64,000 nt of DNA from an uncultured Gemmatimonadota bacterium (GCA_964471155.1 CAYYFX010000006.1:3679-67678), one strand, 5' to 3'. Counted from the stretch's first letter, positions 6,228 through 51,244 are shown. Notes: a model not told the origin generated them from the letters alone. A program made the numbers and translations.

Positions 6228-6310
6228 GAGCGGGCCCTCAACGCCCGTCCCGCTCGCCTTCCGGCGGTTCTCCCGCTCGAGGCACGACCAGGACGTCGTG
6301 GAGCGAGCGC

Positions 6311-6940
6311 TCACTCATGGTCCCGGAAATGCCCCTTGATCACGCCCCAGGTCGACTCCTCCGTCGACACGACGCCGTTCGTCTCGACGCGGAAGTTGTC
6401 GAAGAAGACGTCGAACACGGGGCTGATGTGGTCCTCGACGATCAGGAGGATCCGATCGTCCGACGGCGTGAAGAACGCGTACGGGTCGAACGTGACGGTG
6501 TAGGTGTGCCACACCCCGTCGTCGACCAGGATGGGGTCGGCGCCGCTGATCGGGTCCGTGCCCACCAACCACCGCCCCACGATGGGCACCGCGGTCTCGT
6601 CCGCGTAGCCGACGAACCCCCCATGGCTGCCGGGGATGGTCCCGGCCACCGGCAAGCCCAGGTAGTCGAAGGAGAGCGTGATCATCTCTCCTGCCGAGAC
6701 CGGGAACTCGACGCTGAAGATGTCCCCGAAGCCGGTCGTCTGGGCGAACGTCACGACGCCGTTCGACGGGTCCAGCGGGTCGGCGACGATGACGCCGGAG
6801 TGGGCGCCGTTGCTCTTCCCGGTCCACTGCGCCAGGGTACCCTGGAAGTCCTCGCTGAAGAGAACCACCTGGGAGACGGTCGACTGGGGGACTCCCATGA
6901 TTGCCGCCAGCGCGATTGCGGGAAGCCAAGCCTTGTGCAT
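6311..6940 (-). CDS. Secreted hypothetical protein with C-terminal STWGVIKGHFR motif
   Basis: ATG at 6940-6938 is preceded by AAGGAGG. Signal peptide MHKAWLPAIALAAIMGVPQ. Its C-terminal decapeptide is shared with the beta-helix protein at 39538..41028. Confidence 0.6.
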   Translation of the reverse strand: MHKAWLPAIALAAIMGVPQSTVSQVVLFSEDFQGTLAQWTGKSNGAHSGVIVADPLDPSNGVVTFAQTTGFGDIFSVEFPVSAGEMITLSFDYLGLPVAGTIPGSHGGFVGYADETAVPIVGRWLVGTDPISGADPILVDDGVWHTYTVTFDPYAFFTPSDDRILLIVEDHISPVFDVFFDNFRVETNGVVSTEESTWGVIKGHFRDHE

Positions 6941-11094: not shown

Positions 11095-12234
11095 TTGACC
11101 GACAGCAAGCTCGCCGCCCTCCGGCGCGAGATCGACCGCTTGAACCAGGAGATCCTCGCCCTCATCCAGGAGCGCGCGGAGATCGTGCTGGAGATCGCCG
11201 AGCAGAAGCGCTCGCACGGGATCGACGGGTACGACCCCCGCCGCGAGGACGAGATGCTGGAGCAGCTCACCGCGGGCCGCCCCGGCGCCTTCGGCCCGGC
11301 CGAAATCCGCGAGATCTTCACCGCCATCTTCCGGACGTCCCTGGACATCCAGGACCGCGAGCGCCGCGCGGCGCTGCGCGTCCGCCGCCGGGACCTCGTG
11401 CCGGACGGCGGCATCCTCGTGCGCAACGTGGCGGTGGGCGCCGGCGCGCCGGTGCTCTTCGCGGGGCCGTGCTCGGTGGAGACGCCCGAGCAGATGGACG
11501 CGGTGGCGGCGTGCCTCGCGTCGCTGCCCGGACCGAAGATCCTGCGCGCCGGCGCCTTCAAGCCGCGCACGAACCCGTACTCGTTCCAGGGCTTGCGCGA
11601 GGAAGGGCTGCGCATCCTGCGCGAGACGGCGGACCGGTACGGCCTGGCCACGGTCACCGAGGTGCTGGACGTGTCCACGCTGGACGTGGTGGCCGAGCAC
11701 ACGGACATGCTGCAGATCGGCGCCCGCAACATGTACAACACGGAGCTGCTGAAGGCCGTGGGCCGGCTGCGCAAGCCGGTGCTGCTCAAGCGCGGCTTCA
11801 TGGCCACGCTGGACGAGCTGCTGCTGTCCGCGGAGTACATCCTTTCCGCCGGGAACGAGGCGGTGGTGCTGTGCGAGCGCGGCATCCGCACGTTCGAGCC
11901 GTGGACGCGCAACACGCTGGACATCGCCGCGATCCCGCTGCTGCGCCGGGAGACGTCCCTGCCCGTGATCGTGGACGTGAGCCACGCGCTCGGCCGGAAG
12001 GACATCCTGGAGCCGTGCGGAAAGGCGGCGCTGGCCGCCGGGGCGGACGGACTGATGGTGGAGTTCCACCCCGCGCCGGACCAGGCGCTGTCGGACGGCT
12101 TCCAGCAGCTTGATCTGCAGTCCTTCCGCGCCCTCGTGAGTGGCCTGGGACTGGGCCGCCCGGGACCGGGCGACACCGGCAACGGCGCCGACATCCACGC
12201 CGGCGTCCCCGCCGCCCGGAGGAACCCTGCATGA
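11095..12234 (+). CDS. Bifunctional chorismate mutase / 3-deoxy-7-phosphoheptulonate (DAHP) synthase, AroA(G)/KDO8PS-like class
   Basis: TTG start 7 nt after GGAG. N-terminal AroQ chorismate-mutase helix (LRREIDRLNQEILALIQERAEIV). C-terminal DAHPS core (LFAGPCSVE, KPRTNPYSFQG, GADGLMVEFHP). Confidence 0.85.
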   Translation: MTDSKLAALRREIDRLNQEILALIQERAEIVLEIAEQKRSHGIDGYDPRREDEMLEQLTAGRPGAFGPAEIREIFTAIFRTSLDIQDRERRAALRVRRRDLVPDGGILVRNVAVGAGAPVLFAGPCSVETPEQMDAVAACLASLPGPKILRAGAFKPRTNPYSFQGLREEGLRILRETADRYGLATVTEVLDVSTLDVVAEHTDMLQIGARNMYNTELLKAVGRLRKPVLLKRGFMATLDELLLSAEYILSAGNEAVVLCERGIRTFEPWTRNTLDIAAIPLLRRETSLPVIVDVSHALGRKDILEPCGKAALAAGADGLMVEFHPAPDQALSDGFQQLDLQSFRALVSGLGLGRPGPGDTGNGADIHAGVPAARRNPA

Positions 12235-13049
12235 GCTCCACGGAATCGAAGCGCCCCGCCGATCCGGCCGGTCCGGCCGATCCTGCCGGCCCCGCCGGTG
12301 CTTCGGACGCCCGGCCGCACGCCACGGACCGCCTGTTCGCCGAGGAGCGTCCCCGCGTGGACGACTTCAACTTCGGCGAGGCCACCGCCGCCGTCTTCGA
12401 TGACATGCTGGACCGCTCCGTGCCGTTCTACACGGAGATCCAGCGCATGGTGGCGGAGCTGGCCGCGGACTACGCGCAGGACGGCAGCGCGGTGTGGGAC
12501 CTGGGCTGCTCCACGTGCACCACGTTCCTGGAGATCGACCGCGCCCTGCCGAAGGACGTGGAGGTCCGCTTCGTGGGGCTGGACTCGTCGCCGGAGATGC
12601 TCGAGCGCGCGAAGGCGAAGCTGACGGCGGCGAGGTTCGCGCGCCCGTTCGACCTGCGCTGCGCGGACCTGAACCTGGACATGAGGATCGAGAACGCGTC
12701 CGTGGTGCTGCTCGTGCTGACGCTGCAGTTCGTGCGGCCGCTGCACCGCGAGAGCCTGGTCCGGTCCATCTACGACGGTCTGCGCCCGGGCGGCTGCCTG
12801 CTGCTCGTGGAGAAGGTGCTGGGCGAGAACTCCACGTTCAATCGCCTGTTCATCAAGCACTACTACGAGTTCAAGCGCCGGAACGGCTACAGCGACCTGG
12901 AGATCGCGCAGAAGCGCGAGGCGCTGGAGAACGTGCTGGTACCCTACCGCCTGGAGGAGAACAAGCAGCTCCTCCGCAAGGTCGGCTTCCAGGAGATCGA
13001 CGTCTTCTTGAAGTGGTACAACTTCTGCGCCACGGTGGCGATGAAGTGA
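12231..13049 (+). CDS. cmoA: Carboxy-S-adenosyl-L-methionine synthase CmoA
   Basis: Motif-by-motif match to CmoA: VFDDMLDRSVPFY, WDLGCS, LDSSPEML, ENASVVLLVLTLQF, FKRRNGYSDLEIAQKREALENVL. ATGA overlap with the upstream gene. Confidence 0.9.
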   Translation: MSSTESKRPADPAGPADPAGPAGASDARPHATDRLFAEERPRVDDFNFGEATAAVFDDMLDRSVPFYTEIQRMVAELAADYAQDGSAVWDLGCSTCTTFLEIDRALPKDVEVRFVGLDSSPEMLERAKAKLTAARFARPFDLRCADLNLDMRIENASVVLLVLTLQFVRPLHRESLVRSIYDGLRPGGCLLLVEKVLGENSTFNRLFIKHYYEFKRRNGYSDLEIAQKREALENVLVPYRLEENKQLLRKVGFQEIDVFLKWYNFCATVAMK

Positions 13050-13858
13050 GCGGCGCGCGGACCGGCGATCCCGCCCTCGCCAAGGAACCCGCGGCGCGTC
13101 CGGCCCCGCCGGCGGCCGAGCCGCCCGCGAGCGCGGTGGTCCGCATCGGACGCTTCTTCTTCGGCAAGCGGGACTTCGTCTTCACGGCCGTGTTCCTCCT
13201 CCTCGCGGTCGCGTCCCGTCCGCAGCCCTTCGGCGGCTCCGCGGGAACGGACCGCTGGCTGAACCTGGCCGGCGTGCTCGTGGCGCTCGCGGGGCAGGTG
13301 CTGCGCGCCGCGGTGATCGGCCTCGCGTACATCCGCCGCGGCGGCAAGGACAAGAGGATCTACGCGGACGATCTCGTGACGGACGGGTTCTTCGCGCACA
13401 GCCGCAATCCGCTGTACCTCGGCAACATGCTGGTCTACCTGGGCCTCTTCCTCGTGCTGAACTCCACGATCGGCTGGCTCGTGGGCGTGCCGTTCTTCCT
13501 CGTCGCGTACCTCTGCATCACCGCCGCGGAGGAGGAGTACCTCGGCCGCCGCTTCGGCGCCGCGTACGAGGAGTACCGCCGCCGCGTCCCGCGGTTCTTC
13601 CCCCGTCTCGCCGGCCTCGGCGACACGATGCGCGGCATGCGCTTCCACTGGCGGCGGGTGATCCGCAAGGAGTACGGGTCGACCTACGCGTGGGTGGTGA
13701 CGGTGCTGGCGCTGCTCGCGTACGAGCGCGTGACGTGGGCCGGCGGCGACGCGAGCGGACCGGCGCTGCGCCGGATCGCGCTCGCCTGGGGGATCCTGAC
13801 GATCCTCTACGGGGTCGCCCGCTGGCTGAAGAAGACCCACCGCATCGACGACGTCTGA
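13046..13858 (+). CDS. Isoprenylcysteine carboxyl methyltransferase (ICMT/PEMT-like) family membrane methyltransferase
   Basis: GTG start overlaps the cmoA stop (GTGA). Multi-TM protein with the ICMT C-terminal motif HSRNPLYLG...EEEYLGRRFGAAYEEYRRRVPRFFP. Confidence 0.7.
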   Translation: MSGARTGDPALAKEPAARPAPPAAEPPASAVVRIGRFFFGKRDFVFTAVFLLLAVASRPQPFGGSAGTDRWLNLAGVLVALAGQVLRAAVIGLAYIRRGGKDKRIYADDLVTDGFFAHSRNPLYLGNMLVYLGLFLVLNSTIGWLVGVPFFLVAYLCITAAEEEYLGRRFGAAYEEYRRRVPRFFPRLAGLGDTMRGMRFHWRRVIRKEYGSTYAWVVTVLALLAYERVTWAGGDASGPALRRIALAWGILTILYGVARWLKKTHRIDDV

Positions 13859-13891
13859 GGTCCGTCCCCGGGGGGACCGGGCGGTCCATCG

Positions 13892-15223
13892 TCACGCCGT
13901 GTTCCCGACCGGAGGCGCGTCGTACTGCAGCAGCCGGCGCTGGCCCTCGAGCGCCCGCTCCCGGGTGAGATCCTGGGTCACCTCGAGCGTGCCGACGTAC
14001 GTGCCGTCCGCATCCCGCATCGCGAAGTAGCGGATGAACACGAACCGGCCGCGGTAGTCGATCCAGAAGTCCGCCACATCCTGGCGCCCGCAGCGGAAGT
14101 CGCCCAGGATCCGCTCGACGACGTCCACGCTCGCCGGCGGGTGGCAGTGCTGGACCTTACGGCCGATCACCGCCTTCGGGCGGACGAACACGCGCTTCGG
14201 CCCTTCGCTGAAGAACCGCACGCGATCGTCCGCGTCCACGAAGGTCAGGTCCACCGGCAGCACCGAGAACATCGCCATCAGCTGCGCCGGCGTCATGGCG
14301 CCGGTGGGGAACAGGACGGCGGCCTGCGGCGGGTCCGCGCGGCCCGCGATGCGCAGGCCGGACTCCCCGGCGCCGCCGCCCGGCGCCGCGGGCATCGGCG
14401 CCGCGGGGGCCGGGGCCGCCGCGGGCGCGGGGGGACGGTAGCCCTCGTCCGGGTCCACGATGCACCAGCCGAACTGCGGCGACTGCGTCCAGACCTCGCC
14501 CCACTCGATGCCCGTGAGCGTCTGGAGCGCCATGGGCAGCAGGATGCGCTCCTCCTTGAAGATCATCTCCTCGACCGCGTGCAGCGCGGGTTCGGCGACC
14601 TCGGAGCGGACGAGCCCCCATTCCTCGCGCGTGGCGCCCTCGGCCGTCAGCGCCTCGCGGAGGCTCGCGAGCCGCGTGCGGACCTCGTCGTCCTTGCCCC
14701 ACATCACCTTCGACGGCCCGGTGATCCCGTGGCGCTCGAGGATCGGGAAGAGCAGGTTCTCCTTCCGCGCGTAGTGCTTGTCCACGTCCATCAGCTCGTT
14801 GAGGAGCGAGAGGCAGCGACGGACCGCGTCCGGCGGCGCCGCCGTCGCCGGGTCCTGCGCGGCGCCGGGGGCCAGCGCCGCCAACGCCTCGCGGATCGAT
14901 CGCACGTGCTGCGCGATCGCCGTGTTCTCCTTCCGGAACGTCGTCACGGGGTGCCCGGGCGGGAGCAGCGGCACGGGACGCTCCGTCAGGACCTCCGCGA
15001 CGACCTGCGAGTGCAGATCGCACATGCCCATGATCTCGCCGACCGGCACGCCCTCGGCGATGAGCTCCTGCTCCATCTGCGCGATCTCGGTGGCGTCGCA
15101 CTCGCGGACGAGCGCCCGCAGCTGCGCCTTGACCTCCGCGGGAGCCTTGCCTTCGTGCAGGTGGCGGATGACATGCTTGAGGGTGGCGATCCGGTGCGCG
15201 CGATTGTTCAGCAGCTCGGACAT
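13892..15223 (-). CDS. DUF438-family protein (DUF1858 / hemerythrin-like / PAS-like)
   Basis: ATG is preceded by GAGGAG. The N-terminus LKHVIRHLHEGKAPAEVKAQL and the arrangement HHE-like region, Pro/Ala linker, PAS-like C-terminus are typical of DUF438 proteins. Confidence 0.7.
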   Translation of the reverse strand: MSELLNNRAHRIATLKHVIRHLHEGKAPAEVKAQLRALVRECDATEIAQMEQELIAEGVPVGEIMGMCDLHSQVVAEVLTERPVPLLPPGHPVTTFRKENTAIAQHVRSIREALAALAPGAAQDPATAAPPDAVRRCLSLLNELMDVDKHYARKENLLFPILERHGITGPSKVMWGKDDEVRTRLASLREALTAEGATREEWGLVRSEVAEPALHAVEEMIFKEERILLPMALQTLTGIEWGEVWTQSPQFGWCIVDPDEGYRPPAPAAAPAPAAPMPAAPGGGAGESGLRIAGRADPPQAAVLFPTGAMTPAQLMAMFSVLPVDLTFVDADDRVRFFSEGPKRVFVRPKAVIGRKVQHCHPPASVDVVERILGDFRCGRQDVADFWIDYRGRFVFIRYFAMRDADGTYVGTLEVTQDLTRERALEGQRRLLQYDAPPVGNTA

Positions 15224-15339
15224 GCGGGGGCTCCTCGGGCGGGCTTCCGCGGGCCGGCAGACCGCGCCCGCGAAAAGCGGATATCCAGATCCGATTAGTC
15301 TCTATGTACGCCTCGCCGGCTCCGGGAGCAAGGGGGGCC

Positions 15340-25013: not shown

Positions 25014-26918
<1,905 letters not shown>

Positions 26919-26924
26919 GCGCGC

Positions 26925-27344
26925 CTACGCGCCTTCCGCCGGTTCCGGCAGCCGGTCCCGGCCCAGGTACGCCAGCGCGGCCTCGCGCGTGCGGAAGACC
27001 GCCACCCGCTTCATGCCGGCGGGATCCGCCTCGCGGTGCGCCTCGTACATGCGGGCGATGCCGAACGCGAAGTCCTGCGGCGCGACGATCGCGATCTTCG
27101 TGGGCGATGCCGGGGACGGCACGTCCATCGTGGCGGAGAACGCCGCGAGGTCGCGCACGCGGCCGGTGGACGGCAGCGCGATCTCCACGACCTCCGTGGT
27201 GTCCACGAGTTCGTCGAAGCCCTGCACGTCCTCGCGCGACCAGACCTCCCGCTGGAACGCGAAGATCTCCGTGTCCGAGACCGCTCCCCGGACGTGCGCG
27301 ACGACGAGGCGGTGGTCGTGGTGGATGGTGTAGTCGATCGGCAT
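26925..27344 (-). CDS. Hypothetical protein, possibly STAS/SpoIIAA-like
   Basis: 139 aa with unbiased composition, sandwiched between the transporter and the EBP with 6-15 nt gaps. The C-terminal pattern KIAIVAPQDFAFGIARMYE...VFRTREAALAYL resembles a STAS domain. This is a weak call. Confidence 0.45.
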   Translation of the reverse strand: MPIDYTIHHDHRLVVAHVRGAVSDTEIFAFQREVWSREDVQGFDELVDTTEVVEIALPSTGRVRDLAAFSATMDVPSPASPTKIAIVAPQDFAFGIARMYEAHREADPAGMKRVAVFRTREAALAYLGRDRLPEPAEGA

Positions 27345-27359: not shown

Positions 27360-28667
27360 TCAGGCCGCCTCGGCCCTCCGACGGTACTCCCGTCCGATCG
27401 CCACCGCCACCGCGATCCACGCCGCCACCAGCACCAGGTTCACGCGCGCGAAGTCCTGCGTGGCGAGCGACAGCGGGACGGTCCCCACCCACACCAGCGC
27501 CGCGGACAGCAGGTCCCCCGCGCGCACGAAGAACGTGTCGATGGCCTGCTTCGCCTTGTACTTCTCCTCGCGCGTGGTCGGCAGGAAGAGCACGTTGCGG
27601 ACGGTGTTCTGCAGCGAGTAGTCCGTGGCGTTCTCCGCGGTCTTCGCCCAGCGCACCGCTGCCAGCACCGGCCAGAACGCGAGCAGCGCGTACGCGCCGA
27701 GCGCGATGACCGGCAGGACGAGGATCGCCACGCGCACGCCCAGGTACTTCAGGATGCGGGACACGAGGAAGAGCTGCAGCAGCACGCCGGCCAGGTTCAC
27801 GTAGAAGAAGAAGTCCGCGTAGAACGCCCCGATCCAGTCCCGCTCGGACATCTCCCCCGCGCGCTGCGCCGCTTCCGCCGCCACGACGCGGTCCAGCACG
27901 TAGCCGCCCGTGGTGTTCACCCAGTTGAGGAGCGCCATCAGGATCGCGATGAGCAGCAGGTAGCGGCTGCCGGTCACGAGACGGAACGCGCCGCCGGCGG
28001 CCAGCGGCTCCACCGGCGCCGGGGCCCCGCCGCGCGCGGCACCGCGCTCGCGATCGTCCACGGCGTGCGTGAGCAGGAGCGAGACGAGCAGCAGCCCCGC
28101 GGCGACGACCAGCATCTCCTCGACGCCGAGCGCGCGGATCATCCGGTTCGCCACCCAGCTCCCGGCCACCGCGCCGAACGAGGCGCCGAACGCCACGATC
28201 GCGAAGAGGCGCTTCCCGCGCTCCGGGGTGTACACGTCGTTGGCGAAGGACCAGAACTGCGCGATGACCATCAGGTTGAAGATGCCCACCCACAGGAAGA
28301 ACGCCACGCCGAGGTACGGGACGCGCGCCTTCGCGAGCAGCCAGAAGCCCACGAGACAGGCGGCGAAGAACACGGTGACCACGTCGATGAGCGTTCGCCG
28401 CGGGAAGCGCGAGGCGAGCCGCGCGTACGCCGGCACCGCGAACAGCAGGAGGAACGCCTGGCCCGCCGTGGTGTATGCCTTGAGCTCCGCGCCGCCGCCC
28501 GCCAGGATCAGCGCCTCGCGCACCGGCTTGATCAGGTAGTACGTGGTGAGGAGGAGGAGGACGTTGAGCGTGAGCAGCAGGACGGTGCCGCCCTCGCCGG
28601 CGCGGACCTCGGCGAACAGTCCCAGGAAGCGCTCGAGGGGGCTTCGCGGACGGTCGCCGGCTTCCAT
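27360..28667 (-). CDS. TLC-family (ATP/ADP-translocase-like) nucleotide transporter homolog
   Basis: About 11 TM segments. The TLC hallmark FWSFANDVYTPERGKRLFAIVAFGASFGAVAGSW corresponds to [26 protein letters not shown] in Rickettsia Tlc. Also LIKPVREALIL. Confidence 0.75.
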   Translation of the reverse strand: MEAGDRPRSPLERFLGLFAEVRAGEGGTVLLLTLNVLLLLTTYYLIKPVREALILAGGGAELKAYTTAGQAFLLLFAVPAYARLASRFPRRTLIDVVTVFFAACLVGFWLLAKARVPYLGVAFFLWVGIFNLMVIAQFWSFANDVYTPERGKRLFAIVAFGASFGAVAGSWVANRMIRALGVEEMLVVAAGLLLVSLLLTHAVDDRERGAARGGAPAPVEPLAAGGAFRLVTGSRYLLLIAILMALLNWVNTTGGYVLDRVVAAEAAQRAGEMSERDWIGAFYADFFFYVNLAGVLLQLFLVSRILKYLGVRVAILVLPVIALGAYALLAFWPVLAAVRWAKTAENATDYSLQNTVRNVLFLPTTREEKYKAKQAIDTFFVRAGDLLSAALVWVGTVPLSLATQDFARVNLVLVAAWIAVAVAIGREYRRRAEAA

Positions 28668-28736: not shown

Positions 28737-29963
28737 ATGAACCTTCCTCGACGGGGCGGCCGGCGGTCAAGGGCGGGCTGGGGGACGGCAGCGATCCTGG
28801 CCGGCGCCGTCGTCTGGCCGGCGCTGGCGGCGGCGCCGGCGTCCGCGGTGGACTGGCCGTGGGAAACGGACGACTACGACTGGCCCGACGGCTCGGACCT
28901 CCCGGTGGAGCCGCTGGACCGGCCGACCGCGGAGGCCGCGGTGGCGGAGGCCGTGGCCGCCGAGGGGCTCTTCCGCTTCGCGGTGTTCGGCGACCAGCGC
29001 GCCCTGGCGGACGGCGAGTGGCAGGAGCTGATGCGCCGCATCGTGGAGTGGGAGCGCGACCACGGCGACCTGGCGTTCGTCCTCGACACGGGCGACATCG
29101 TGAACGACGGCCGCCACACCAACCAGTTCCACCGGCTCACGACCGAGATCCTCTCGATCGCGCCGGAGCTGCCGTACCTGGTGGGCGTGGGCAACCACGA
29201 GGTGCACAACAACGAGGATCCGGCCGCGCGCGCGAACACCGCCGCGTACCTGCGCGCGCTGGACCCGCGGTTCTCCGCCGAGCGCATGTACTACCGCAAG
29301 GATCTCGGCGGCGCGACCTTCCTGTTCCTGGACACGAACGACCTCGTGTACGGCGACGCCGGCGAGCGCGGCGCGTGCCCGCCGGAACCGGAGCCGGGAT
29401 CGCGCGCCGCGGCGCAGGTGGACTGGCTGGCCGCGCAGCTCGCGGAGACCCGCGCCGCCGGGCCGCGGCTCGTGATCGCGGTGCTGCACCATCCCTTCGT
29501 GCAGTCCTCGGCGAAGCACCGCGCGTCCGCGGCCTCGCTGTGGAACCTGCGCGTGGACGGGACGCCCTTCGTGGACCTGCTCGTGGACGGCGGCGTGGAC
29601 GTGGTGCTGACCGGTCACACGCACACGTACGAGCGCTTCCACCTCCACCGCGAGGACGGCGCGCGCCTGGACGTGATCAACCTCTCGGGACGGCCGCGGG
29701 GGTCCGCGTTCGGGCTCGGCGCGGGACTGCGGCGGTCGAAGGACATCCGCGGCGAGGAACGCGTGCGGCTCGCCGACCGGGGCTGGCAGGGGCTGGAGCC
29801 GTGGACCATCACGCAGGAGGAGTGGCTGCCGAAGGACGAGGAGGCCGATCAGTTCGCCGTGTTCACCGTGGAGCCGGGCGGCGGGTTGACGATGGAGGTG
29901 CGTTTCCTCGACCCGGGCGCCGCGGCCGGAACGACCGGCGGACCGGCGGTGCGGTTGCGATAG
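28737..29963 (+). CDS. Secreted calcineurin-like metallophosphoesterase
   Basis: ATG 4 nt after GGAGGAG. Signal peptide. Phosphoesterase motifs: FGDQR...LDTGDIVNDG, GNHE, VLHHP, GHTHTYERF. Confidence 0.8.
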   Translation: MNLPRRGGRRSRAGWGTAAILAGAVVWPALAAAPASAVDWPWETDDYDWPDGSDLPVEPLDRPTAEAAVAEAVAAEGLFRFAVFGDQRALADGEWQELMRRIVEWERDHGDLAFVLDTGDIVNDGRHTNQFHRLTTEILSIAPELPYLVGVGNHEVHNNEDPAARANTAAYLRALDPRFSAERMYYRKDLGGATFLFLDTNDLVYGDAGERGACPPEPEPGSRAAAQVDWLAAQLAETRAAGPRLVIAVLHHPFVQSSAKHRASAASLWNLRVDGTPFVDLLVDGGVDVVLTGHTHTYERFHLHREDGARLDVINLSGRPRGSAFGLGAGLRRSKDIRGEERVRLADRGWQGLEPWTITQEEWLPKDEEADQFAVFTVEPGGGLTMEVRFLDPGAAAGTTGGPAVRLR

Positions 29964-29974
29964 CGGGCTCCGGC

Positions 29975-31633
29975 CTACTCGCCGTCCCTCAGGATGCCCG
30001 TGAGCCGCCAGGAGCCTCCGTCGCGCCGGTAGTGGGCCTCCGTGGGCGGCAGCGACCCCTCGCCACCCGCCGCCGTCCATCGCACCACCGCGTACTCCCG
30101 CCCCCGCACCACGTCCCCCGCCACCTCCGCCCCCGGCGCGCCCGCCTCCGTGGGTCCCGCGATCCGCCGCCCCGCGTCGTCCAGCACCTCCACGCGGTAC
30201 CGCAGCGCGGACGGTCTTCCCGCCTCCGCCAGCGCATCCCCGGCGTCCACGCGGAAGCCCTCGCCCTGCATCACCACGCGGTCCAGGCCCGTCACCGGCG
30301 TCACGCGCGTCAGCGCCCAGTCCACCGTCTTCTCCCACCGCGCCAGCAGCACGCGCGTGAGTTCCTCGTCCGCCGACGGGTCGTCGAACCGCGCCGCCGT
30401 CACCGCGGCCCGCACGTGCTCCGGCGTCAGCCGCGCCATCACCGTCCCCGCCCAGAACGCGTCCGCCGGCCGCCACGCCAGCACGGTGTCGTTCACGTAG
30501 TTCGCCTTCCACGCGGCGGGGTCGTACGCCTCCGCCTCGAACAACCCCACCAGCGGATGCCGCGGCGCGGCCAGCGTCTCGTACGGGCGGGTCAGCAACC
30601 CGAACGACGGGATGCCGGTCGCCACCTCGCCGAGATCGAAGTCGTAGGCGAAGCCGATGCGCGGCTCGAACCGCGCGGCCCAGTACCCGCCGAGGCACCC
30701 GTCGAAGTCCACGAGGTAGTGCCGCAGGAAGTGCCGGCCGTCCCCCTCCGTGTACAGGTCCAGCGAGTTGTCCTCCTTGAGATCCACGTGGTTCAGCCAC
30801 GCGCCGAACACGCGGAGCGCCCGCAGGGAGCGGCGCTGCGGGTGCGGGATCGTGTCGTTCGGGTCGTCGGCGCGCGTGCCGCGGTACGACCAGCCGCCGA
30901 TCGGCTTGCCCGGCAGGTAGCGGCTCACGAGCACGCGGTACTCGCCGGCGGCGTTGCGCGGCGCGTACTTCGCGAGCAGCGCGTCCACGGCCTCGTCCCG
31001 GATGGGCGCGCGCGTCCCGTCGTCGGCCTTGTCGGTGGCGCCCTCGGCCACCGTGAGCTGCTCGCGCGCGAAGTACACCACGCGGTCATCCGGCACGTGG
31101 TATCCGAGCGCCCAGAACAGCCGCGCCGCCACCGCGTCCGCCGCGGTGGCCACCACCGGCGCGTACGGCTTGTCGAACTTGCAGATGTACCGCACGCCGC
31201 GCGCGTCCTCGATGACGAGGCCGGGGTTGCGCCCGCCGCTCTTCATGCCGGTGATCTGCCAGGGGCGGAATGCCTCCGGCCCGGGATCCTCCCCGCCCGC
31301 GCCGGCTGCCACCTGCGCGGGGGTCGGCGTGCCGCGGTCCTCGTACCAGGAGGACGACGGCACCTCGCCGAAGCGGTTCACGTCCAGCGCGGGCGGCGCC
31401 GGCACCGGATCCAGGCCCAGGCGGATCCGCTTCGGTCCGAAGTTCTCGATGTGATGCGAGAGCCGCCAGAACTCCTTCTCCGCGGGCTCGGGGATGTCCG
31501 CCGTGTCGTGCACCACATGCACGGGCTCGCCATCCACGAAGCGCACCGGCGGCGGCGCGCACGACGCCGCGCCGAGCGCCGCCACGGCGGTGGCCACGAC
31601 CGCGGCGGCGCGCACGCCCGCGCGCGCCCTCAC
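29975..31633 (-). CDS. Lipoprotein with eukaryotic-protein-kinase-like catalytic motifs (putative secreted atypical kinase)
   Basis: GTG at 31633, 5 nt after GGAGG, overlapping the Omp85 gene's stop. Lipobox ALGAASC. Motifs GVRYICKFDK (beta3 Lys?), FGAWLNHVDLKEDNSL (HxD-LK-xx-N catalytic loop) and YLVDFDGCLG (DFG-like). The 5' ~1.4 kb of track ORF 29975..33004 is a frame artefact. Confidence 0.6.
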   Translation of the reverse strand: MRARAGVRAAAVVATAVAALGAASCAPPPVRFVDGEPVHVVHDTADIPEPAEKEFWRLSHHIENFGPKRIRLGLDPVPAPPALDVNRFGEVPSSSWYEDRGTPTPAQVAAGAGGEDPGPEAFRPWQITGMKSGGRNPGLVIEDARGVRYICKFDKPYAPVVATAADAVAARLFWALGYHVPDDRVVYFAREQLTVAEGATDKADDGTRAPIRDEAVDALLAKYAPRNAAGEYRVLVSRYLPGKPIGGWSYRGTRADDPNDTIPHPQRRSLRALRVFGAWLNHVDLKEDNSLDLYTEGDGRHFLRHYLVDFDGCLGGYWAARFEPRIGFAYDFDLGEVATGIPSFGLLTRPYETLAAPRHPLVGLFEAEAYDPAAWKANYVNDTVLAWRPADAFWAGTVMARLTPEHVRAAVTAARFDDPSADEELTRVLLARWEKTVDWALTRVTPVTGLDRVVMQGEGFRVDAGDALAEAGRPSALRYRVEVLDDAGRRIAGPTEAGAPGAEVAGDVVRGREYAVVRWTAAGGEGSLPPTEAHYRRDGGSWRLTGILRDGE

Positions 31634-32940
31634 CGCACCCTCCGCGACCGGCTCTCGAACACCGTCTCCGTGCCCACGAAGAACTGGAACCCCTCCTCGC
31701 TTCGCGCCACGTGCGCCGTGAACCCGTTGTCCCCGATCACGTACGCCACGCCGAGCCCGACCGACGGCTCGATGTCCGCCAGCCGCAGCTCGTCCGCACG
31801 CGCCGCCACCGTGCCCCAGTCCGCGAACAGGCTCCCGTGCATGCGCGTGGTCACCGGGTAGTGGTACTCCGCCGTCAGCAGCATCCCCGTGCGGTCCGTG
31901 AAGCGGTCCCGCGAGTACCCGCGCATCCCGGTCTTCCCGCCGAGGCGCACGAGCTCCGTGTAGGGGATGTCCTCCGGATCGTCGGACACCACGCCCTCCG
32001 CCATCGCCCGCAGCGCGAGCCGCCGGTTCCCGCGCCACACGTTCACGTGCGTCTGCACCTCGCCCAGCCAGTGCCGGTAGTCCGCGTCGCCGCCCGAGTC
32101 CGCCACGTTCGTCCCGCCGGCGACCCGCACGAGCGATCCCCGCGTGGCGAAGGCCTCGCGGTCCCGCGAGTCCCACGCCAGCTCCGCCTCCGCGCCGTGG
32201 TAGTCGCTGGACTTCGCGCGGGCGAACTCCTCCGGGAACCCGACGGCCACGGCCTCGTCCTCCTCGTCCTCCGGCGTGGCGAGATCGTCCCGTCGCGCGT
32301 AGCCCGTGAGCGCCGCCTTCCACTCCTTCGCCGGACGCAGCGCCACGGACGCCTCCACCAAGAGCCGCCGCCGCTGCGCCTCGAAGTCCTCCTCGCCCGA
32401 CTCCGGCCCGATCCCGTGGAACAGCCGCTTCGGCTTGTTGTCCACGCGCGCGAGCGCCTCCCATTGCAATACCTTCGGCGCGCTGCGGAAATGCGCGGCG
32501 ACCAGGTTCTCGTCGTCCGAGAGGAAGCCGCCGCTGAGGCGCAGCTTCGCGCCGGGCTGCGGCCAGTCCGTGGCGGTGGCGTCCAGCCCCACGAGCGAGA
32601 ACCCGAGGTTCGTCTCGTACCCGAAGAACAGCGTGGAGCGGAACGGTCCGCGCTGGTAGCCGAAGCTCAGGAGGTCCGCGAGCCCCGACAGCACGTGCGC
32701 GCGATCCTCGGCCTCGGCCAGCTTCACCACCGGCCAGGTGGCGACGCGCAGGCCCGCCCATGGCACGAACAGCAGGCCGCGGCCCACGTACTGCAGGGCG
32801 GAGGCCTGCCGCGGGAGGGGCCGCTCCGTTCCGCGGACGGCGGCCGTCGAGTCGGGCGCGCCCTCCGCGGCCCCCGCGGGGGGCCCGGAGAGCGCGAGGA
32901 CGGCCACCACCGCGAGCGAACCTGGGCGACGCAGGAACAT
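31630..32940 (-). CDS. Omp85/D15 surface-antigen-family outer-membrane beta-barrel protein
   Basis: Signal peptide MFLRRPGSLAVVAVLALSGPPAGAA. C-terminal barrel motifs LGGKTGMRGYSRDRFTDRTGMLLTAEYHYPV...GSLFADWGTV...SVGLGVAYV...FQFFVGTETVF. Confidence 0.7.
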   Translation of the reverse strand: MFLRRPGSLAVVAVLALSGPPAGAAEGAPDSTAAVRGTERPLPRQASALQYVGRGLLFVPWAGLRVATWPVVKLAEAEDRAHVLSGLADLLSFGYQRGPFRSTLFFGYETNLGFSLVGLDATATDWPQPGAKLRLSGGFLSDDENLVAAHFRSAPKVLQWEALARVDNKPKRLFHGIGPESGEEDFEAQRRRLLVEASVALRPAKEWKAALTGYARRDDLATPEDEEDEAVAVGFPEEFARAKSSDYHGAEAELAWDSRDREAFATRGSLVRVAGGTNVADSGGDADYRHWLGEVQTHVNVWRGNRRLALRAMAEGVVSDDPEDIPYTELVRLGGKTGMRGYSRDRFTDRTGMLLTAEYHYPVTTRMHGSLFADWGTVAARADELRLADIEPSVGLGVAYVIGDNGFTAHVARSEEGFQFFVGTETVFESRSRRVR

Positions 32941-33120
32941 CGGGCACCTTCCCCGGGAAGCGGCGAGGGCGCGGATCATCGGCGGGGGTCGCGGATCGCG
33001 TCAAGGCGCCGCCGTCCGAACCTCGCGCACGTCCCGCGCATCCAAGCGACGTCGGAGCGCGTCCGCCCCGGGCGTTCCCGGGGCCTGGCGTCGTTGCTGC
33101 GCCCCCGCCCGGGAATTAGG

Positions 33121-34807: not shown

Positions 34808-37111
34808 GTGACGGTGGATCGCTCCCGCCTCGAAGGCGCGGTCGGCGTCGCCACGCTGTGCGCCTTCCTCCTGGTCGCCAACCAGGTCGCGGCGAAGGCC
34901 GTGCGCGACGCGCTCTTCCTCTCGCACTTCGACGTCACGCTCCTGCCCCGCCTGGTGATGGCCGCGTCCGCCGTGTCCATCGTGGCCGCGCTGGCGGCCT
35001 CCCGCCTGCTCGGGCGGTTCGGACCCTCCCGGCTCCTGCCCGCCGCCTGCGCGATCAGCGCGACCGTCGTGCTCGGCCTCGCCGCGATCCAGCCCGCCCT
35101 GCCGCGCGTGACCGCGGTCGGGATCTACGTGCACATCAGCATCTTCGGCGCGGTGCTCATCTCCTGGTTCTGGTCCATGCTGAACGAAGGGCTCGATCCG
35201 AGCACGGCGCGCCGGCGCGTGGGCCGCATCGCGGGCGGCGGGACGCTGGGCGGGCTGCTGGGCGGGCTCGCCGCGGAGCGCGTGGCCAGCATGTTCTCCA
35301 CGGACGCGATGCTCCCGCTGCTCGCCGCCGCGCACGCGGCGTGCGCGCTGCTGGCCTGGCAGACCTCCAGCGTGCTGGACATCCGCCACCCCGCGTCGGC
35401 CGGCGATCCGCCCGCGCGCTCGGGGTTCCAGGTGCTCGCCGAGGTCAGGTACCTGCGCGAGCTCGGCGCGCTCGTGATGGTGGGCACCGTCGCGGCCACG
35501 CTGCTGGACTTCGTGTTCAAGGCGCGCGCCGCCGCCACCTTCGACGGCGACGAGCTGCTCCGCGCCTTCGCGCTCTTCTACTCGGCCACGAGCCTCGCCA
35601 CCTTCCTGCTGCAGTCCACGCTGACGCGGCGGCTGCTGGCCCGCGGGGTGGCGCCCACCGCGGCCTCCCTGCCGGCGATCGTGACGCTGGGCGCGGCCGG
35701 CGCGCTCATCGTGCCCGGGTTCCTGGCGGCGGGCATCGCGCGCGGCCTGGAGTCCGCGGTGCGCAGCTCCTTCTTCCGGTCCAGCTACGAACTCTTCTAC
35801 ACGCCGGTGCGCCGCGCCGACAAGCGCGCGGCGAAGACGCTCGTGGACGTGGGCTTCGACCGCCTCGGGGACGCGGTGGGCGGCGGGCTCGTGCAGGTCG
35901 TGCTGCTGGGCGGCGCCGCGCTCGGCCTGGGGACCGCGGCCGGCGGCCTGACCACGGTGGCGCTGCTCGTCCTCGCCGGGGTGCTGGGGCTCGTCGGGCT
36001 GACGCTCGCCCGGCGGCTGGACCGAGGGTACACGCGCGCGCTGGAGTCCAGCCTTCTGGATCACGGCGCCCCGGGCGCCGGCGCCACGGCCACCACGCTG
36101 CGGTCCGCGCTGGAGTCGCAGTCCGCGTTCTTCCCCACGCTCACGCAGCTCGAGCTCGGCGGCGAGGGGATGGACGTCCGGGAAGGTACGCCGCCCGACG
36201 CGATCGCCGTGGCGGACGTCGCGGCGGCGGCGGCGGCGGCCCCGTCCGCGACGCCCGCGGCGCCCGCGGTCGACGCCCCGCCGGTTCCCGAGGACCCGGT
36301 GCTGCGGCACGCCACGGAGCTGCGCTCCGGGAACGTGGACCGCGTGCGCGCCGCCCTGGCCGCGATCGGCGAACCGCCCTCCGAGCTGATCTCCATCCTG
36401 ATCCGGCTGCTGGCATGGGACGCGGTTTCAGCGGACGTGGTGGAGGTGCTGCGCCGCGCCGGCGACCGGCACGTGGGGCAGCTCGTGGACGCGCTGCTGG
36501 ATCCGGACGAGGAGTTCGCCACGCGGCGGCGCCTGGCGCGCGTGCTCGCCACGAGCTCGTCGCCGCGGGCGGTGCGCGGACTGCTCGCCGCGCTCGGCGA
36601 CGCGCGCTTCGAGGTGCGCTTCCGCGCCGCCGTGGCGCTGGCGCGATTGCACGAGCGGCGCCCGGACGTGGAGATGGATCCGCTGTCGGTGCTCGCCGCC
36701 GTGGAGCGCGAGGCGCGCGTGAACCGGCACGTGTGGGAGAGCAACCGGCTGCTGGACGAGATCGGTCGCGAGGAGTCCCCGTTCTACGACGAGATCCTGC
36801 GCACGCGCTCGTCGCGCAGCCTGGAGCACGTGTTCAACGTGCTGTCGCTCGTGTACCCGCCGCAGGCCCTGCGCATCGCGTACCGCGGTCTGCACGCGGA
36901 GGACCGCACGCTGCGCGGCACCGCGCTGGAGTACCTGGAGCAGATCCTCCCGCCCGCCGTGCGGGAGTGCCTGTGGCCGTTCCTGGACGACGACCGGGAT
37001 GTCCACGGCGCGGCCCGCGGCCTGGACGACGTGATGGACTCCCTGCTGCGCTCGCACGAGTCCATCCAGGTGGATCTGCAGCGGCTGCGGCAACGCGAGG
37101 ACTCGCGCTGA
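34808..37111 (+). CDS. TLC-family transporter-like membrane domain fused to a C-terminal HEAT/ARM repeat domain
   Basis: GTG start 5 nt after the kinase stop. N-terminal ~400 aa with at least 10 TM and the TLC motif ISWFWSMLNEGLDPSTARRRVGRIAGGGTLGGLLGG. The C-terminus has HEAT-like repeats (RAVRGLLAALGDARFEVRFRAAVALARL...). Confidence 0.75.
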   Translation: MTVDRSRLEGAVGVATLCAFLLVANQVAAKAVRDALFLSHFDVTLLPRLVMAASAVSIVAALAASRLLGRFGPSRLLPAACAISATVVLGLAAIQPALPRVTAVGIYVHISIFGAVLISWFWSMLNEGLDPSTARRRVGRIAGGGTLGGLLGGLAAERVASMFSTDAMLPLLAAAHAACALLAWQTSSVLDIRHPASAGDPPARSGFQVLAEVRYLRELGALVMVGTVAATLLDFVFKARAAATFDGDELLRAFALFYSATSLATFLLQSTLTRRLLARGVAPTAASLPAIVTLGAAGALIVPGFLAAGIARGLESAVRSSFFRSSYELFYTPVRRADKRAAKTLVDVGFDRLGDAVGGGLVQVVLLGGAALGLGTAAGGLTTVALLVLAGVLGLVGLTLARRLDRGYTRALESSLLDHGAPGAGATATTLRSALESQSAFFPTLTQLELGGEGMDVREGTPPDAIAVADVAAAAAAAPSATPAAPAVDAPPVPEDPVLRHATELRSGNVDRVRAALAAIGEPPSELISILIRLLAWDAVSADVVEVLRRAGDRHVGQLVDALLDPDEEFATRRRLARVLATSSSPRAVRGLLAALGDARFEVRFRAAVALARLHERRPDVEMDPLSVLAAVEREARVNRHVWESNRLLDEIGREESPFYDEILRTRSSRSLEHVFNVLSLVYPPQALRIAYRGLHAEDRTLRGTALEYLEQILPPAVRECLWPFLDDDRDVHGAARGLDDVMDSLLRSHESIQVDLQRLRQREDSR

Positions 37112-37297: not shown

Positions 37298-39187
37298 ATG
37301 GAACAGGCCGCGGCCGCCGAACGCCCGTCGCGGGCCGCGTTCGTCATGGGCATGGTGCTGCTGGTCGCACTCGTGCTCGGCGTGTACGCGCGGACCGTCG
37401 GCTTCGGCCTCACCTCCTGGGACGACGACGTCCACCTGACCGCGAACCCGCGGCTGGCGCCCACGCTCGCGAGCGCCGCCGGGTTCTGGGCGGCGCCGTA
37501 CTCGGGGCTGTACATCCCGCTCACGTACACGGTGTACGCGGCGGAGGCCGCGCTGGCGGAGGCGCTCGCCGGGGATCCGCTCGATCCACGCGTGTTCCAC
37601 GCGGGGTGCGTCGTGCTGCACGCGGCGGCGGCGTGCCTGGCCTTCGCGCTCCTGCACGCGGTGACGGGGAGGGCGACGCCGGCGGTCCTGGGCGCCGCCC
37701 TGTGGGCCGTGCATCCGCTGCAGGTGGAGAGCGTGGCGTGGGTGTCCGAGACGAAGGGGCTGCTGGCGGCGGTGTTCATGCTCGCCGCGCTGCGGGCCTA
37801 CCTGCGATTCCGGGATGCGGGTCGCGGGCGCGGCGCGTACCTGCTCGCCACGGCGTGCTTCGCGCTGGCGCTGCTCGCGAAGCCGGTGGCGCTCGTGACG
37901 CCGCTGCTCGCCGTCATCCTGGACGCCGGAGTGCGCCGCCGGCCGCTGCGCGACGCGTGGCGACCGCTCGCGCCGTGGTTCGCGCTGGCCGCCGGGTTCG
38001 CCCTGCTCACGAAGGCGCTGCAGCCCGACGACGTCGTGATGGACATCGCGCCGGTCGCCGCGCGGCCGATCGTCGCGCTCGACGCGTTGGGGTTCTACCT
38101 GGCGAGGACCGTGGCGCCGTTCGACCTCGCGATCGACTATGGGCGTTCGCCGGCGGCGGTCCTCTCGCGGCCGGCGTGGGGCGGGCTGTGGATCGTGGCG
38201 CTGCTGGTCGCCGCCGCGGGCGCGGCGCCGCCGCTGCGGCGAACGGTCGGCGTTCCGCTCCTGTGGTTCGCCGCCGCGCTGTCCCCCGTGCTCGGACTCG
38301 TGCCGTTCGGCTACCAGTACACGTCCACCGTCGCGGACCGCTACGTGTACGTCGCGCTGCTGGGGCCGGCGATGGCGGCGGTGTTCCTGCTGGCGCGCTT
38401 CCCGGGGCGCACGGCCCGCGTCGTGGCGGCGGCGGCCGTCGTCCTGCTCGCGCAGGCGTCCCTGCGGCAGGCGAACGCGTGGCGCTCCAGCGGCACGCTG
38501 TACGCGGCCACGCTCGCCGTGAACCCGGGCAGCATCCACGCGAACAACAACCTCGGGCTGCTCGCGCTGGAGGAGGAGCGCGCGGCGGAGGCGCTGGCGC
38601 GATTCGACCGCGCGCTCGCCACGCGCGACGACTACGTGCCGGCGCTGGTGAACCGCGCGAAGGCGCTGCGCCGGCTGGGCCGCGAGGACGAGGCGGTCGC
38701 CGCGGCGGAGCGCGCGGCGGGGATCGCGCCGGGGTTCGTCCCCGCGCGCGTGGAAGCCGCCGCCGCCCTGCTCGCGGCGGGGCGCGAGGACGACGCGGTG
38801 GCGCACCTCCAGGCCGCGTTCGCCGCGCGGCCGGACGACCCGGACGTGAACGTGAGCCTCGCGCGTTTCGCCCGGTCCCGCGGCGAGATCGCCGTGGCCG
38901 AGCAGCATCTGCGCCGCGCGCTGGCGGCGGACCCCGGCTTCGCGGAGGCGCACCGCGAGCTGGCCTCGTGCCTCTGGCAGCAGGGCGACGAGGCCGCCGC
39001 GGTTGCCGCCTACGAGGCCGCGTTGCGCGCGGACCCGCGATCCTTCGCGGCCCATCGCGACCTGGGCAAGCTGCTCATGAACCGCGGGGATGCGGCGGGT
39101 GCCGCCGCCCACTGGCGGGAGGCCGCCGCGCTCCGGCCGGAGGATGCGGAAGTGCGCGCCTACCTGCAGCGGCTGGTCGGCGAATAG
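37298..39187 (+). CDS. TMTC/PMT_2-like polytopic membrane protein with C-terminal TPR repeats (putative glycosyltransferase-family scaffold)
   Basis: ATG 7 nt after GGAGGG. N-terminal loop motif TSWDDDVHLTANP (the DD/DE motif of PMT/TMTC-type C-family glycosyltransferases). At least 10 TM segments. Five or more C-terminal TPRs (NNNLGLLALEEER..., AEAHRELASCLWQQGD...). Confidence 0.75.
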   Translation: MEQAAAAERPSRAAFVMGMVLLVALVLGVYARTVGFGLTSWDDDVHLTANPRLAPTLASAAGFWAAPYSGLYIPLTYTVYAAEAALAEALAGDPLDPRVFHAGCVVLHAAAACLAFALLHAVTGRATPAVLGAALWAVHPLQVESVAWVSETKGLLAAVFMLAALRAYLRFRDAGRGRGAYLLATACFALALLAKPVALVTPLLAVILDAGVRRRPLRDAWRPLAPWFALAAGFALLTKALQPDDVVMDIAPVAARPIVALDALGFYLARTVAPFDLAIDYGRSPAAVLSRPAWGGLWIVALLVAAAGAAPPLRRTVGVPLLWFAAALSPVLGLVPFGYQYTSTVADRYVYVALLGPAMAAVFLLARFPGRTARVVAAAAVVLLAQASLRQANAWRSSGTLYAATLAVNPGSIHANNNLGLLALEEERAAEALARFDRALATRDDYVPALVNRAKALRRLGREDEAVAAAERAAGIAPGFVPARVEAAAALLAAGREDDAVAHLQAAFAARPDDPDVNVSLARFARSRGEIAVAEQHLRRALAADPGFAEAHRELASCLWQQGDEAAAVAAYEAALRADPRSFAAHRDLGKLLMNRGDAAGAAAHWREAAALRPEDAEVRAYLQRLVGE

Positions 39188-50637: not shown

Positions 50638-51153
50638 CTAGCGGGTGTGGTGCGCGTGATGGTGGTCGTGACCCGCGCCGGGCTCCGCGGCGTGGCCCTT
50701 CGACTCCGGATCGTGTCCGTGGCGGGCGTGCACGACCGCATGGCCTCGTCCCCGGGCGATCAACCAGCGATTCACCGGGAACGCCGCCGCGCCCGCGAGG
50801 ATCAGGGATGCCGCGAGGCTTCCCCAGAAGCGCGGCGACGAGACGTGCGACTCCATCGCTCCCGGGATGACGAGCATGACAACGTTATCCACGACTTCCA
50901 TGATCGCGATGCTCGCCGTGTCGGCCGCCAGCGCCAGCCTGGCCGCGGCCCCCAGCGCAACGCCGGACGCGAGAAGGGGGCGCATCGTCAGCGAGTAGCC
51001 GAAGACGAACGCGAGAAGCACGGAGACGCCGATGGTCCGCCCCGTACCCCAGCCGAGCGTGTTGCCCAGGACCATGCCGAGCACCTCCCCGATGGCGCAG
51101 CCGGTGAGGCAGTGGATGGTGGCGCTCAGGGCGAGGCGATCGAGGTCCTTCAT
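50638..51153 (-). CDS. DUF4396-family membrane protein with a His-rich C-terminal tail
   Basis: ATG 6 nt after GAGGAG. ATIHCLTGCAIGE (CxxGC) and 4 TM segments. Tail HARHGHDPESKGHAAEPGAGHDHHHAHHTR. Confidence 0.6.
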   Translation of the reverse strand: MKDLDRLALSATIHCLTGCAIGEVLGMVLGNTLGWGTGRTIGVSVLLAFVFGYSLTMRPLLASGVALGAAARLALAADTASIAIMEVVDNVVMLVIPGAMESHVSSPRFWGSLAASLILAGAAAFPVNRWLIARGRGHAVVHARHGHDPESKGHAAEPGAGHDHHHAHHTR

Positions 51154-51244
51154 GGGCATCTCCTCTCTCGGCCGCCCGGCGATTGAACCGGCCGGGCGCC
51201 AGGGACTATCATTCGATGCGATCCGCCGACGGGAGATTCCCGGC

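Follow-up and report, generated by a model that had tools for sequence, protein, structure and literature searches.

Why should the gene for an Omp85-type outer-membrane barrel run directly into a gene for a lipoprotein that carries protein-kinase-like motifs? The question is raised by a 64,000-nt stretch of DNA from an uncultured Gemmatimonadota bacterium (GCA_964471155.1 CAYYFX010000006.1:3679-67678; here called the window), in which the two genes lie side by side on the minus strand. We give a probability of roughly 0.5 to the reading that they encode an outer-membrane barrel-lipoprotein complex with an active extracytoplasmic phosphotransferase, with TLC/NTT-type transporters possibly supplying its nucleotide. 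The features of the pair are listed here, the motifs being those conserved over 267 family members.

31630..32940, minus strand: POTRA-less Omp85 barrel gene, 436 aa, likely ATG at 32940
31630..31633, minus strand: GTGA overlap of the Omp85 TGA stop with the lipoprotein GTG start, 4 nt, read from the sequence
29975..31633, minus strand: 552-aa lipoprotein gene with a predicted atypical protein-kinase-like domain, GTG start
31559..31633, minus strand: signal peptide and lipobox (…ALGAASC), Cys25 codon at 31559..31561
30299..31276, minus strand: predicted kinase-like catalytic domain, residues ~120-445 (Gly-rich loop, beta3 Lys, catalytic loop, DFG-like motif, helical C-lobe)
30821..30865, minus strand: invariant block D257-P-N259-D260-x3-H264-x2-R267-R268-x2-R271
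30767..30790, minus strand: catalytic loop H282-V-D284-L-K286-E-D-N289
30701..30709, minus strand: DFG-equivalent D309-F310-D311
29978..30286, minus strand: predicted C-terminal FN3-like beta-sandwich, residues 450-552

The initial annotation had placed here an Omp85/D15-type barrel gene that ends 4 nt inside the GTG start of a 552-aa lipoprotein with the lipobox LGAASC, and had proposed co-occurrence of the two genes across genomes as a check. All of this was borne out. The barrel protein matches Pfam PF01103 at 47.4 bits (cut-off 24) over residues 218-413, and the 3' end of its gene reads …agg gtg cgg tga, with the TGA at 31632..31630 and the lipoprotein GTG at 31633..31631. The same 4-nt overlap is found in the orthologous gene calls of two other loci (L081 and L084). 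We surveyed 80 genome loci containing 85 lipoprotein homologs, 82 of them with enough upstream sequence, and in 75 of the 82, spread over several phyla, a same-strand Omp85 gene lies directly upstream and ends at the lipoprotein start. The seven exceptions include one homolog with its Omp85 gene ~400 nt upstream (L023), one with an adjacent Omp85 gene on the opposite strand (L075), and two that are second lipoprotein copies in loci already holding a pair (L046 and L073). The lipobox Cys codon lies at most 88 nt (median 47 nt) past the Omp85 stop in 52 of 54 measurable loci, so near that only an abutting or overlapping start fits and the signal peptide must begin at or over the stop.

The two proteins also share an evolutionary history. 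A mirror-tree comparison of 70 pairs gave r = 0.89 (Mantel p = 0.001), nearest neighbours were congruent within the top three for 57 of the 70, and the whole pair has been copied by tandem duplication in three loci (L037, L059 and L073). The Omp85 partner evolves faster than the lipoprotein, with a mean pairwise distance of 0.75 against 0.63. These comparisons show a pair of genes that is co-inherited and co-diverging and, as read from the overlapping reading frames, translationally coupled.

The lipoprotein, which starts VRARAGVRAAAVVATAVAALGAASC, is on the evidence of its signal sequence an exported, lipid-anchored protein. A basic n-region and a hydrophobic core precede the lipobox stretch AVAALGAASC, giving a pattern-based lipoprotein call, and the lipobox Cys is kept in 207 of the 267 family members (a diverse set at 50% identity, over which all conservation counts were taken), the remainder being mostly N-terminally truncated or gapped at this position.

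An AlphaFold2 model of the lipoprotein, built from a 44-sequence alignment, has a mean predicted local distance difference test score (pLDDT) of 92 and a predicted template modelling score (pTM) of 0.91. The model is bilobal and kinase-like, not a non-kinase fold, and Foldseek concurs. Its elements follow the kinase order, with beta1, the Gly-rich loop (K131-x-x-G134-x3-G138), beta2, beta3 (carrying Lys152, encoded at 31178..31180 on the minus strand) and helix C succeeded by helix E, the catalytic loop, a beta hairpin and D309-F310-D311. The three motifs singled out in the initial annotation, GVRYICKFDK (145-154), AWLNHVDLKEDNSL (278-291) and YLVDFDGCLG (306-315), are all present and are kept across the family, at 96-99% for the main motif residues: K152 in 258, D284 in 263 and N289 in 261 of the 267 members, and the DFG pair D309 and F310 in 265 and 256. 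Position 286 is K in 181 and R in 61 (242 together), and H282 is kept in 221. At position 311, 161 members have G and 91 have D, which makes a literal DFG the family consensus. As far as sequence can tell, the nucleotide-binding, metal-binding and catalytic residues (Gly-rich loop, Lys152, Asp284, Lys286, Asn289 and Asp309-Phe-Gly/Asp) are intact.

The kinase-like fold and residues stand, and one correction to the annotation concerns the branch, which is atypical rather than canonical eukaryotic. Neither Pkinase (PF00069) nor PF07714 matched any of 44 members at E ≤ 1, and there was no HipA, PI3_PI4_kinase, Fam20C or CotH Pfam match, HipA_2 being touched by two of the 44 (E 0.016). The model points to an atypical protein-kinase-like fold nearest the HipA/CtkA/Fam20/PI4KII branch. 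When the family profile was aligned by hhalign with the Ser/Thr kinase encoded next to the pair, a weak local match of 34 columns (E 0.054) put HVDLKEDN…DFD in register on HRDVKPAN…DFG, which we take as supportive only. The invariant block, DPNDxxxHxxRRxxR, is family-specific and lies outside the canonical kinase motifs; D260, R268 and R271 are present in 267 of the 267 members, and D257, H264 and R267 in 266. Its role may be in binding a partner or an anionic substrate.

The annotation had not recognised the lipoprotein as a named family, and none was found: neither the single sequence nor the family profile found a match in Pfam, NCBIfam or the PDB, and weak matches to TIGR03195, MerT and DUF4941 were dismissed as noise. 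A word-indexed search returned 649 homologs, every one labelled 'hypothetical', and when 1.84 billion cluster representatives were searched exhaustively with the profile, 4,211 clusters (50% identity) passed E ≤ 1e-3 and 1,395 passed E ≤ 1e-30. Cluster look-ups gave only 'hypothetical protein' from metagenome-assembled genomes (MAGs), and all hosts of the family are uncultured MAGs. Their labels are Gemmatimonadota, Krumholzibacteriia, 'Fibrobacteraceae' and Calditrichia, together with Myxococcota (Kofleriaceae, Haliangiales, Polyangiaceae, Nannocystaceae, Bradymonadales) and Acidobacteriota (Vicinamibacterales, Bryobacteraceae, Solibacteraceae). Several MAGs carry at least two copies, and the closest relative (95% identity) comes from a MAG labelled Gemmatimonadota (L081). 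One 1,158-aa member, P0281, combines a degenerate catalytic loop, NHTLARSINTRG, with 600 extra C-terminal residues in which no Pfam domain was found; for these two reasons it is uninformative as a Rosetta-stone fusion, and it may be a pseudoenzyme offshoot.

Omp85 barrels are known for inserting or translocating proteins rather than for passing solutes. The 436-aa version of the Omp85 protein starts MFLRRPGSLAVV; at its full extent the open reading frame (ORF) occupies 31630..32979 (minus strand), giving 449 aa from an alternative ATG at 32979. PF01103 is present in all 15 of the Omp85-partner homologs that a word-indexed search returned. The predicted structure (pLDDT 78.5) comprises a signal peptide, a helix at residues 48-91 and ~16 strands across residues 95-423, a 16-stranded barrel resembling those of BamA, TamA and Sam50. 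Both lid-lock motifs are recognisable, the loop-6 motif as GMRGY, with R340 and G341 invariant, and the strand-13 FxDxG motif as FADWG, with F372 and G376 invariant and D374 kept in at least 90%. The NCBIfam BamA and TamA models score the protein far under their cut-offs. POTRA domains are absent from the model, in which only the signal peptide and one long helix come before the barrel, and the protein therefore belongs to the 'noNterm' class of Omp85 proteins. In Leptospira, 'noNterm' Omp85 genes likewise have lipoprotein genes directly downstream (PMC11358297), and a Borrelia Omp85 has been proposed as a member of an envelope export cluster (PMC13078400).

A further link, overlooked in the initial annotation, is that both of the major facilitator superfamily (MFS)-type genes flanking the pair encode homologs of TLC/NTT-type nucleotide transporters. 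The divergent membrane Ser/Thr kinase that the annotation had noted beside the pair is indeed there, between the Omp85 gene and the second of them.

27360..28667, minus strand: TLC1, 435-aa TLC/NTT-type (ATP/ADP-translocase-like) MFS transporter, PF03219 42.8 bits
33121..34803, plus strand: membrane Ser/Thr protein kinase gene, Pkinase E 5e-37, hydrophobic N-terminal third
34808..37111, plus strand: TLC-HEAT, 767-aa TLC-like membrane domain fused to HEAT repeats, HEAT_2 34.2 bits

The TLC1 score against the Pfam TLC family compares with a cut-off of 21, and TLC1 also matches the NTP/NDP exchanger superfamily TIGR00769 (E 5.8e-9). The TLC domain of the window TLC-HEAT scores 18.7 bits, just below the cut-off, and that of its L017 ortholog 23.5 bits. 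Of the 80 pair loci, 31 hold a TLC1 ortholog and 28 a TLC-HEAT relative, in several arrangements. TLC1, Omp85 and lipoprotein genes follow each other on one strand in nine loci (L004, L005, L006, L009, L030, L073, L074, L076 and L022), and L084 has a TLC-Omp85-lipoprotein operon with 4-nt overlaps. The order is TLC1, TLC-HEAT, a protein with two cyclic nucleotide monophosphate (cNMP)-binding domains, Omp85 and lipoprotein in L017, L020, L034, L061 and L062, and Omp85, lipoprotein, TLC1 and TLC-HEAT in L037 and L039. The cNMP protein (~300 aa; 5582..6490, plus strand, in L017) follows TLC-HEAT in L020, L034, L061, L062, L030, L068 and L076 as well; no cNMP-binding gene was seen beside the window TLC-HEAT, where a TPR protein gene (37298..39187) lies instead.

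The association was also seen from the transporter side. A reciprocal metagenome scan seeded with TLC1 orthologs yielded 80 loci, and ~11 of the 22 with long flanks contained the pair, mostly in the order Omp85, lipoprotein, TLC1 (and then a second TLC gene). A family this rare should, by reasoning rather than from a computed background, be expected only rarely in a random 20-kb stretch. Where a MAG has at least two loci, at least one copy is TLC-linked in 7 of 10 cases, and the link is found in MAGs labelled Myxococcota, Acidobacteriota, Gemmatimonadota and Fibrobacteraceae.

How might such a set of proteins work together? We infer from the sequences that the lipoprotein has kinase activity and that it relies on the barrel. 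The POTRA-less 16-stranded barrel and the lipid-anchored enzyme would form a 1:1 outer-membrane module, in which the lipoprotein, exported by Sec/Lol, would dock on the barrel or thread through it, and the barrel would anchor, hold or expose it at the outer membrane. There it could move phosphate, or another nucleotide-derived group, onto an envelope substrate, whether protein, lipid or glycan. We know of no ATP pool in the periplasm, and for this reason we propose that nucleotide is supplied by the TLC/NTT antiporters encoded with the pair: TLC1 and TLC-HEAT, in the inner membrane, would swap cytoplasmic ATP for periplasmic ADP, with regulation through the HEAT and cNMP-binding modules and possibly the membrane Ser/Thr kinase encoded alongside. 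By analogy with AAC-type exchange, an ATP-out/ADP-in direction is thermodynamically plausible for an electrogenic ATP4-/ADP3- exchanger in a respiring cell. Eukaryotes offer a parallel in the ATP/ADP exchanger of the endoplasmic reticulum (ER), AXER (SLC35B1), which feeds lumenal enzymes, alongside secretory-pathway kinases, of which Fam20C is one. The most far-reaching form of the proposal is an extracytoplasmic phosphorylation system common to several diderm phyla, in which TLC/NTT proteins under cNMP, HEAT and Ser/Thr-kinase control export ATP, and a barrel-borne, Fam20-CtkA-like lipoprotein kinase modifies envelope or surface molecules; in this full form we hold it only tentatively and think it somewhat unlikely.

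Several points weigh against a barrel-held phosphotransferase fed by TLC transporters. Kinase-like folds may instead carry out AMPylation or glutamylation, or be pseudoenzymes. No invariant Glu is evident in helix 161-175 (alpha-C) as a partner for Lys152, the conserved residues of this helix being T163 and R171, and the only acidic candidate near K152 is the invariant D154. The long N-terminal helix of the barrel model is of low confidence. Three orphan lipoprotein paralogs have no Omp85 neighbour (the second copy in L022, 8007..9581; L028, 8001..9584; L033, 2888..4468). The link to TLC genes is facultative, ~60% of pair loci having no TLC gene within 8 kb, and in the window itself the TLC genes neighbour the pair but lie outside its operon. 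The TIGR00769 model gives 35 bits against a cut-off of 387, which places these TLC proteins at a distance from the characterised ATP/ADP translocases, and the canonical role of NTT proteins is nucleotide import (PMC5381601), not export. As to the surroundings of the orphans, the gene upstream is that of a GDSL lipase in L028 and of an M13 peptidase in L033; L022, which shares its MAG with L028, holds a complete pair besides.

Import is the basis of one alternative, nucleotide scavenging, in which the lipoprotein would be a nucleotide-binding receptor at the surface or in the periplasm, the barrel a passage through the outer membrane and the TLC proteins importers of ATP or other nucleotides, much as in barrel-plus-lipoprotein nutrient uptake systems joined to TLC import of the kind known from energy parasites. 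The canonical function of TLC/NTT transporters (PMC5381601), the operon linkage of the pair with TLC genes and the many hosts from predatory or scavenging lineages (Myxococcota- and Bdellovibrionales-labelled MAGs) agree with it, and by analogy a kinase-like fold could bind nucleotide. We nevertheless consider scavenging unlikely, since Asp284, Lys/Arg286 and both metal ligands are near-invariant and would be needless in a pure binding protein, and Omp85 barrels are known to act on proteins rather than solutes, their RGY and FxDxG lid-lock motifs being intact here. The lipoprotein family is also present in non-predatory Acidobacteriota and Gemmatimonadota.

If the lipoprotein were instead a structural accessory, a pseudokinase subunit of a specialised BAM/TAM-like machine (cf. 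BamB-E), the adjacency of TLC genes would reflect envelope co-regulation. Lipoprotein partners are typical of Omp85 proteins, the two proteins co-diverge, no conserved alpha-C Glu is apparent and there is no kinase Pfam match, all of which this explanation accommodates. Pseudokinases, however, usually lack at least one of the Lys, the catalytic Asp and the DFG Asp, whereas here all three are kept at 96-99%, and a barrel without POTRA domains is ill-suited for receiving substrate outer-membrane proteins; we judge an accessory role distinctly improbable. Highly doubtful, in our view, is a secreted or surface effector, exported through a barrel like that of two-partner secretion (TPS) to phosphorylate molecules of prey, host or competitors and drawing ATP from its target, as modelled on the secreted kinase CtkA. 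A TPS domain is missing from the cargo and POTRA from the barrel, the lipoprotein is strongly conserved rather than polymorphic, the chromosomal context is a housekeeping one, and the linkage to TLC, HEAT and cNMP genes would be left without explanation.

Beyond the barrel-lipoprotein pair and its TLC neighbours, the membrane Ser/Thr kinase gene points away from the Omp85 gene and precedes TLC-HEAT by only 4 nt. This kinase has close orthologs (E < 1e-70) within the module in L035, L039, L053 and L024, and it may be a regulatory fifth component. One further feature separates the two transcription units.

32941..33120, no strand: divergent intergenic region between the Omp85-lipoprotein operon and the operon of the Ser/Thr kinase, TLC-HEAT and TPR genes, read from the sequence

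No sigma-54 consensus occurs in this region, and matches across the window are under the shuffle expectation; a sigma-54 promoter for the Omp85 operon was rejected on the absence of the consensus, despite a sigma-54 activator gene nearby. This gene, for a GAF-PAS sigma-54 enhancer-binding protein (25014..26918, minus strand), lies downstream of TLC1, as does a 139-aa ORF without a family match (26925..27344, minus strand). The gene for a calcineurin-like metallophosphoesterase whose signal peptide is rich in Arg (28737..29963, plus strand) is convergent with the lipoprotein gene, their stops being 11 nt apart; the enzyme could be a periplasmic phosphatase or nucleotidase. Occurring in 3 of the 80 loci (metallophosphoesterase), 1 locus (139-aa ORF) and 7 loci (sigma-54 activator), these three were rejected as conserved partners. 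In L081 a 689-aa FlgD_ig/Flg_new_2 gene (11791..13860, plus strand), absent from the window, stands between the lipoprotein and metallophosphoesterase genes.

Elsewhere the window encodes a DUF438-hemerythrin-PAS_10 sensor protein (13892..15301, minus strand), an LVIVD-repeat/FlgD_ig protein (50999..53425, plus strand) and ordinary chromosomal genes (aminopeptidase P, chorismate mutase/DAHP synthase, NhaA). tRNA and Rfam scans of the window gave zero matches, and with this housekeeping context a mobile-element or phage origin was rejected. At ~73% G+C, the DNA gave noisy results in an all-against-all clustering of stop-to-stop ORFs, which served as a pointer only.

Among known systems, the CtkA (JHP0940, Helicobacter pylori)/HipA/HipT-type kinases share ~11% identity with the lipoprotein, which has no Pfam HipA or CtkA match and differs from them in its lipobox, a 95-residue N-terminal extension, an FN3-like C-terminal domain, the DDPND..H..RR..R block and an obligate Omp85 neighbour. 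The eukaryotic Fam20C and Fam20B and the spore-coat CotH kinases have no detectable sequence similarity to it, have neither lipid anchor nor barrel partner, and act on known substrates; PI4KII-alpha and MavQ are lipid kinases of the cytosolic face, palmitoylated rather than lipobox-bearing, and the lipoprotein has no PI3_PI4_kinase match. Like the TPS systems (FhaC/TpsB-TpsA) and BamA-BamBCDE, the pair joins an Omp85 barrel to a dedicated partner, the genes being adjacent in TPS, and the N-terminal helix of the barrel recalls H1 of FhaC. Unlike TPS, it has no POTRA and no TPS domain (no Pfam domain being found in the lipoprotein), and its partner is a predicted lipoprotein enzyme; the Bam lipoproteins have unrelated folds without catalytic motifs.

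The closest likeness of the barrel is to the Leptospira noNterm proteins LIC12252/12254/12258, which have a 16-strand barrel and lid-lock motifs and no POTRA (PMC11358297). Their downstream lipoproteins are DUF1566 and Big-domain adhesin-like proteins rather than kinase-like ones, with no reported TLC link, and the long N-terminal helix sets the window barrel apart from them. Free-living bacteria widely encode the uncharacterised NTT-HEAT and NTT-HEAT-cNBD proteins, and TLC-HEAT, together with the cNMP gene that follows it in other loci, matches this NTT-HEAT(-cNBD) arrangement of Major et al. 2017; that study mentions no outer-membrane barrel or kinase-like partner (PMC5381601). Our literature search, directed at kinase-like lipoproteins of the periplasm or outer membrane, found no description of one linked to Omp85 or to TLC transporters. 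The components each come from a known superfamily (protein-kinase-like, Omp85 and TLC), and together they make a candidate for a nucleotide-dependent enzyme system outside the cytoplasm.

By the general view there is no ATP in the periplasm or at the outer membrane, and envelope machines are thought to work without nucleotide hydrolysis at the outer membrane. With the genes defined here, regulated nucleotide chemistry outside the bacterial cytoplasm becomes a testable question. The kinase-like superfamily gains a new family, and the locus offers a candidate first functional context for POTRA-less Omp85 proteins and for the NTT-HEAT(-cNBD) transporters of free-living bacteria. Confirmation of the candidate enzyme system would add a new kind of machinery to the cell envelope; were the ATP-export reading also true, prokaryotes would have their own equivalent of the ER/Golgi ATP importer and the secretory-pathway kinases, and noNterm Omp85 barrels and NTT-HEAT transporters would gain their first assigned function.

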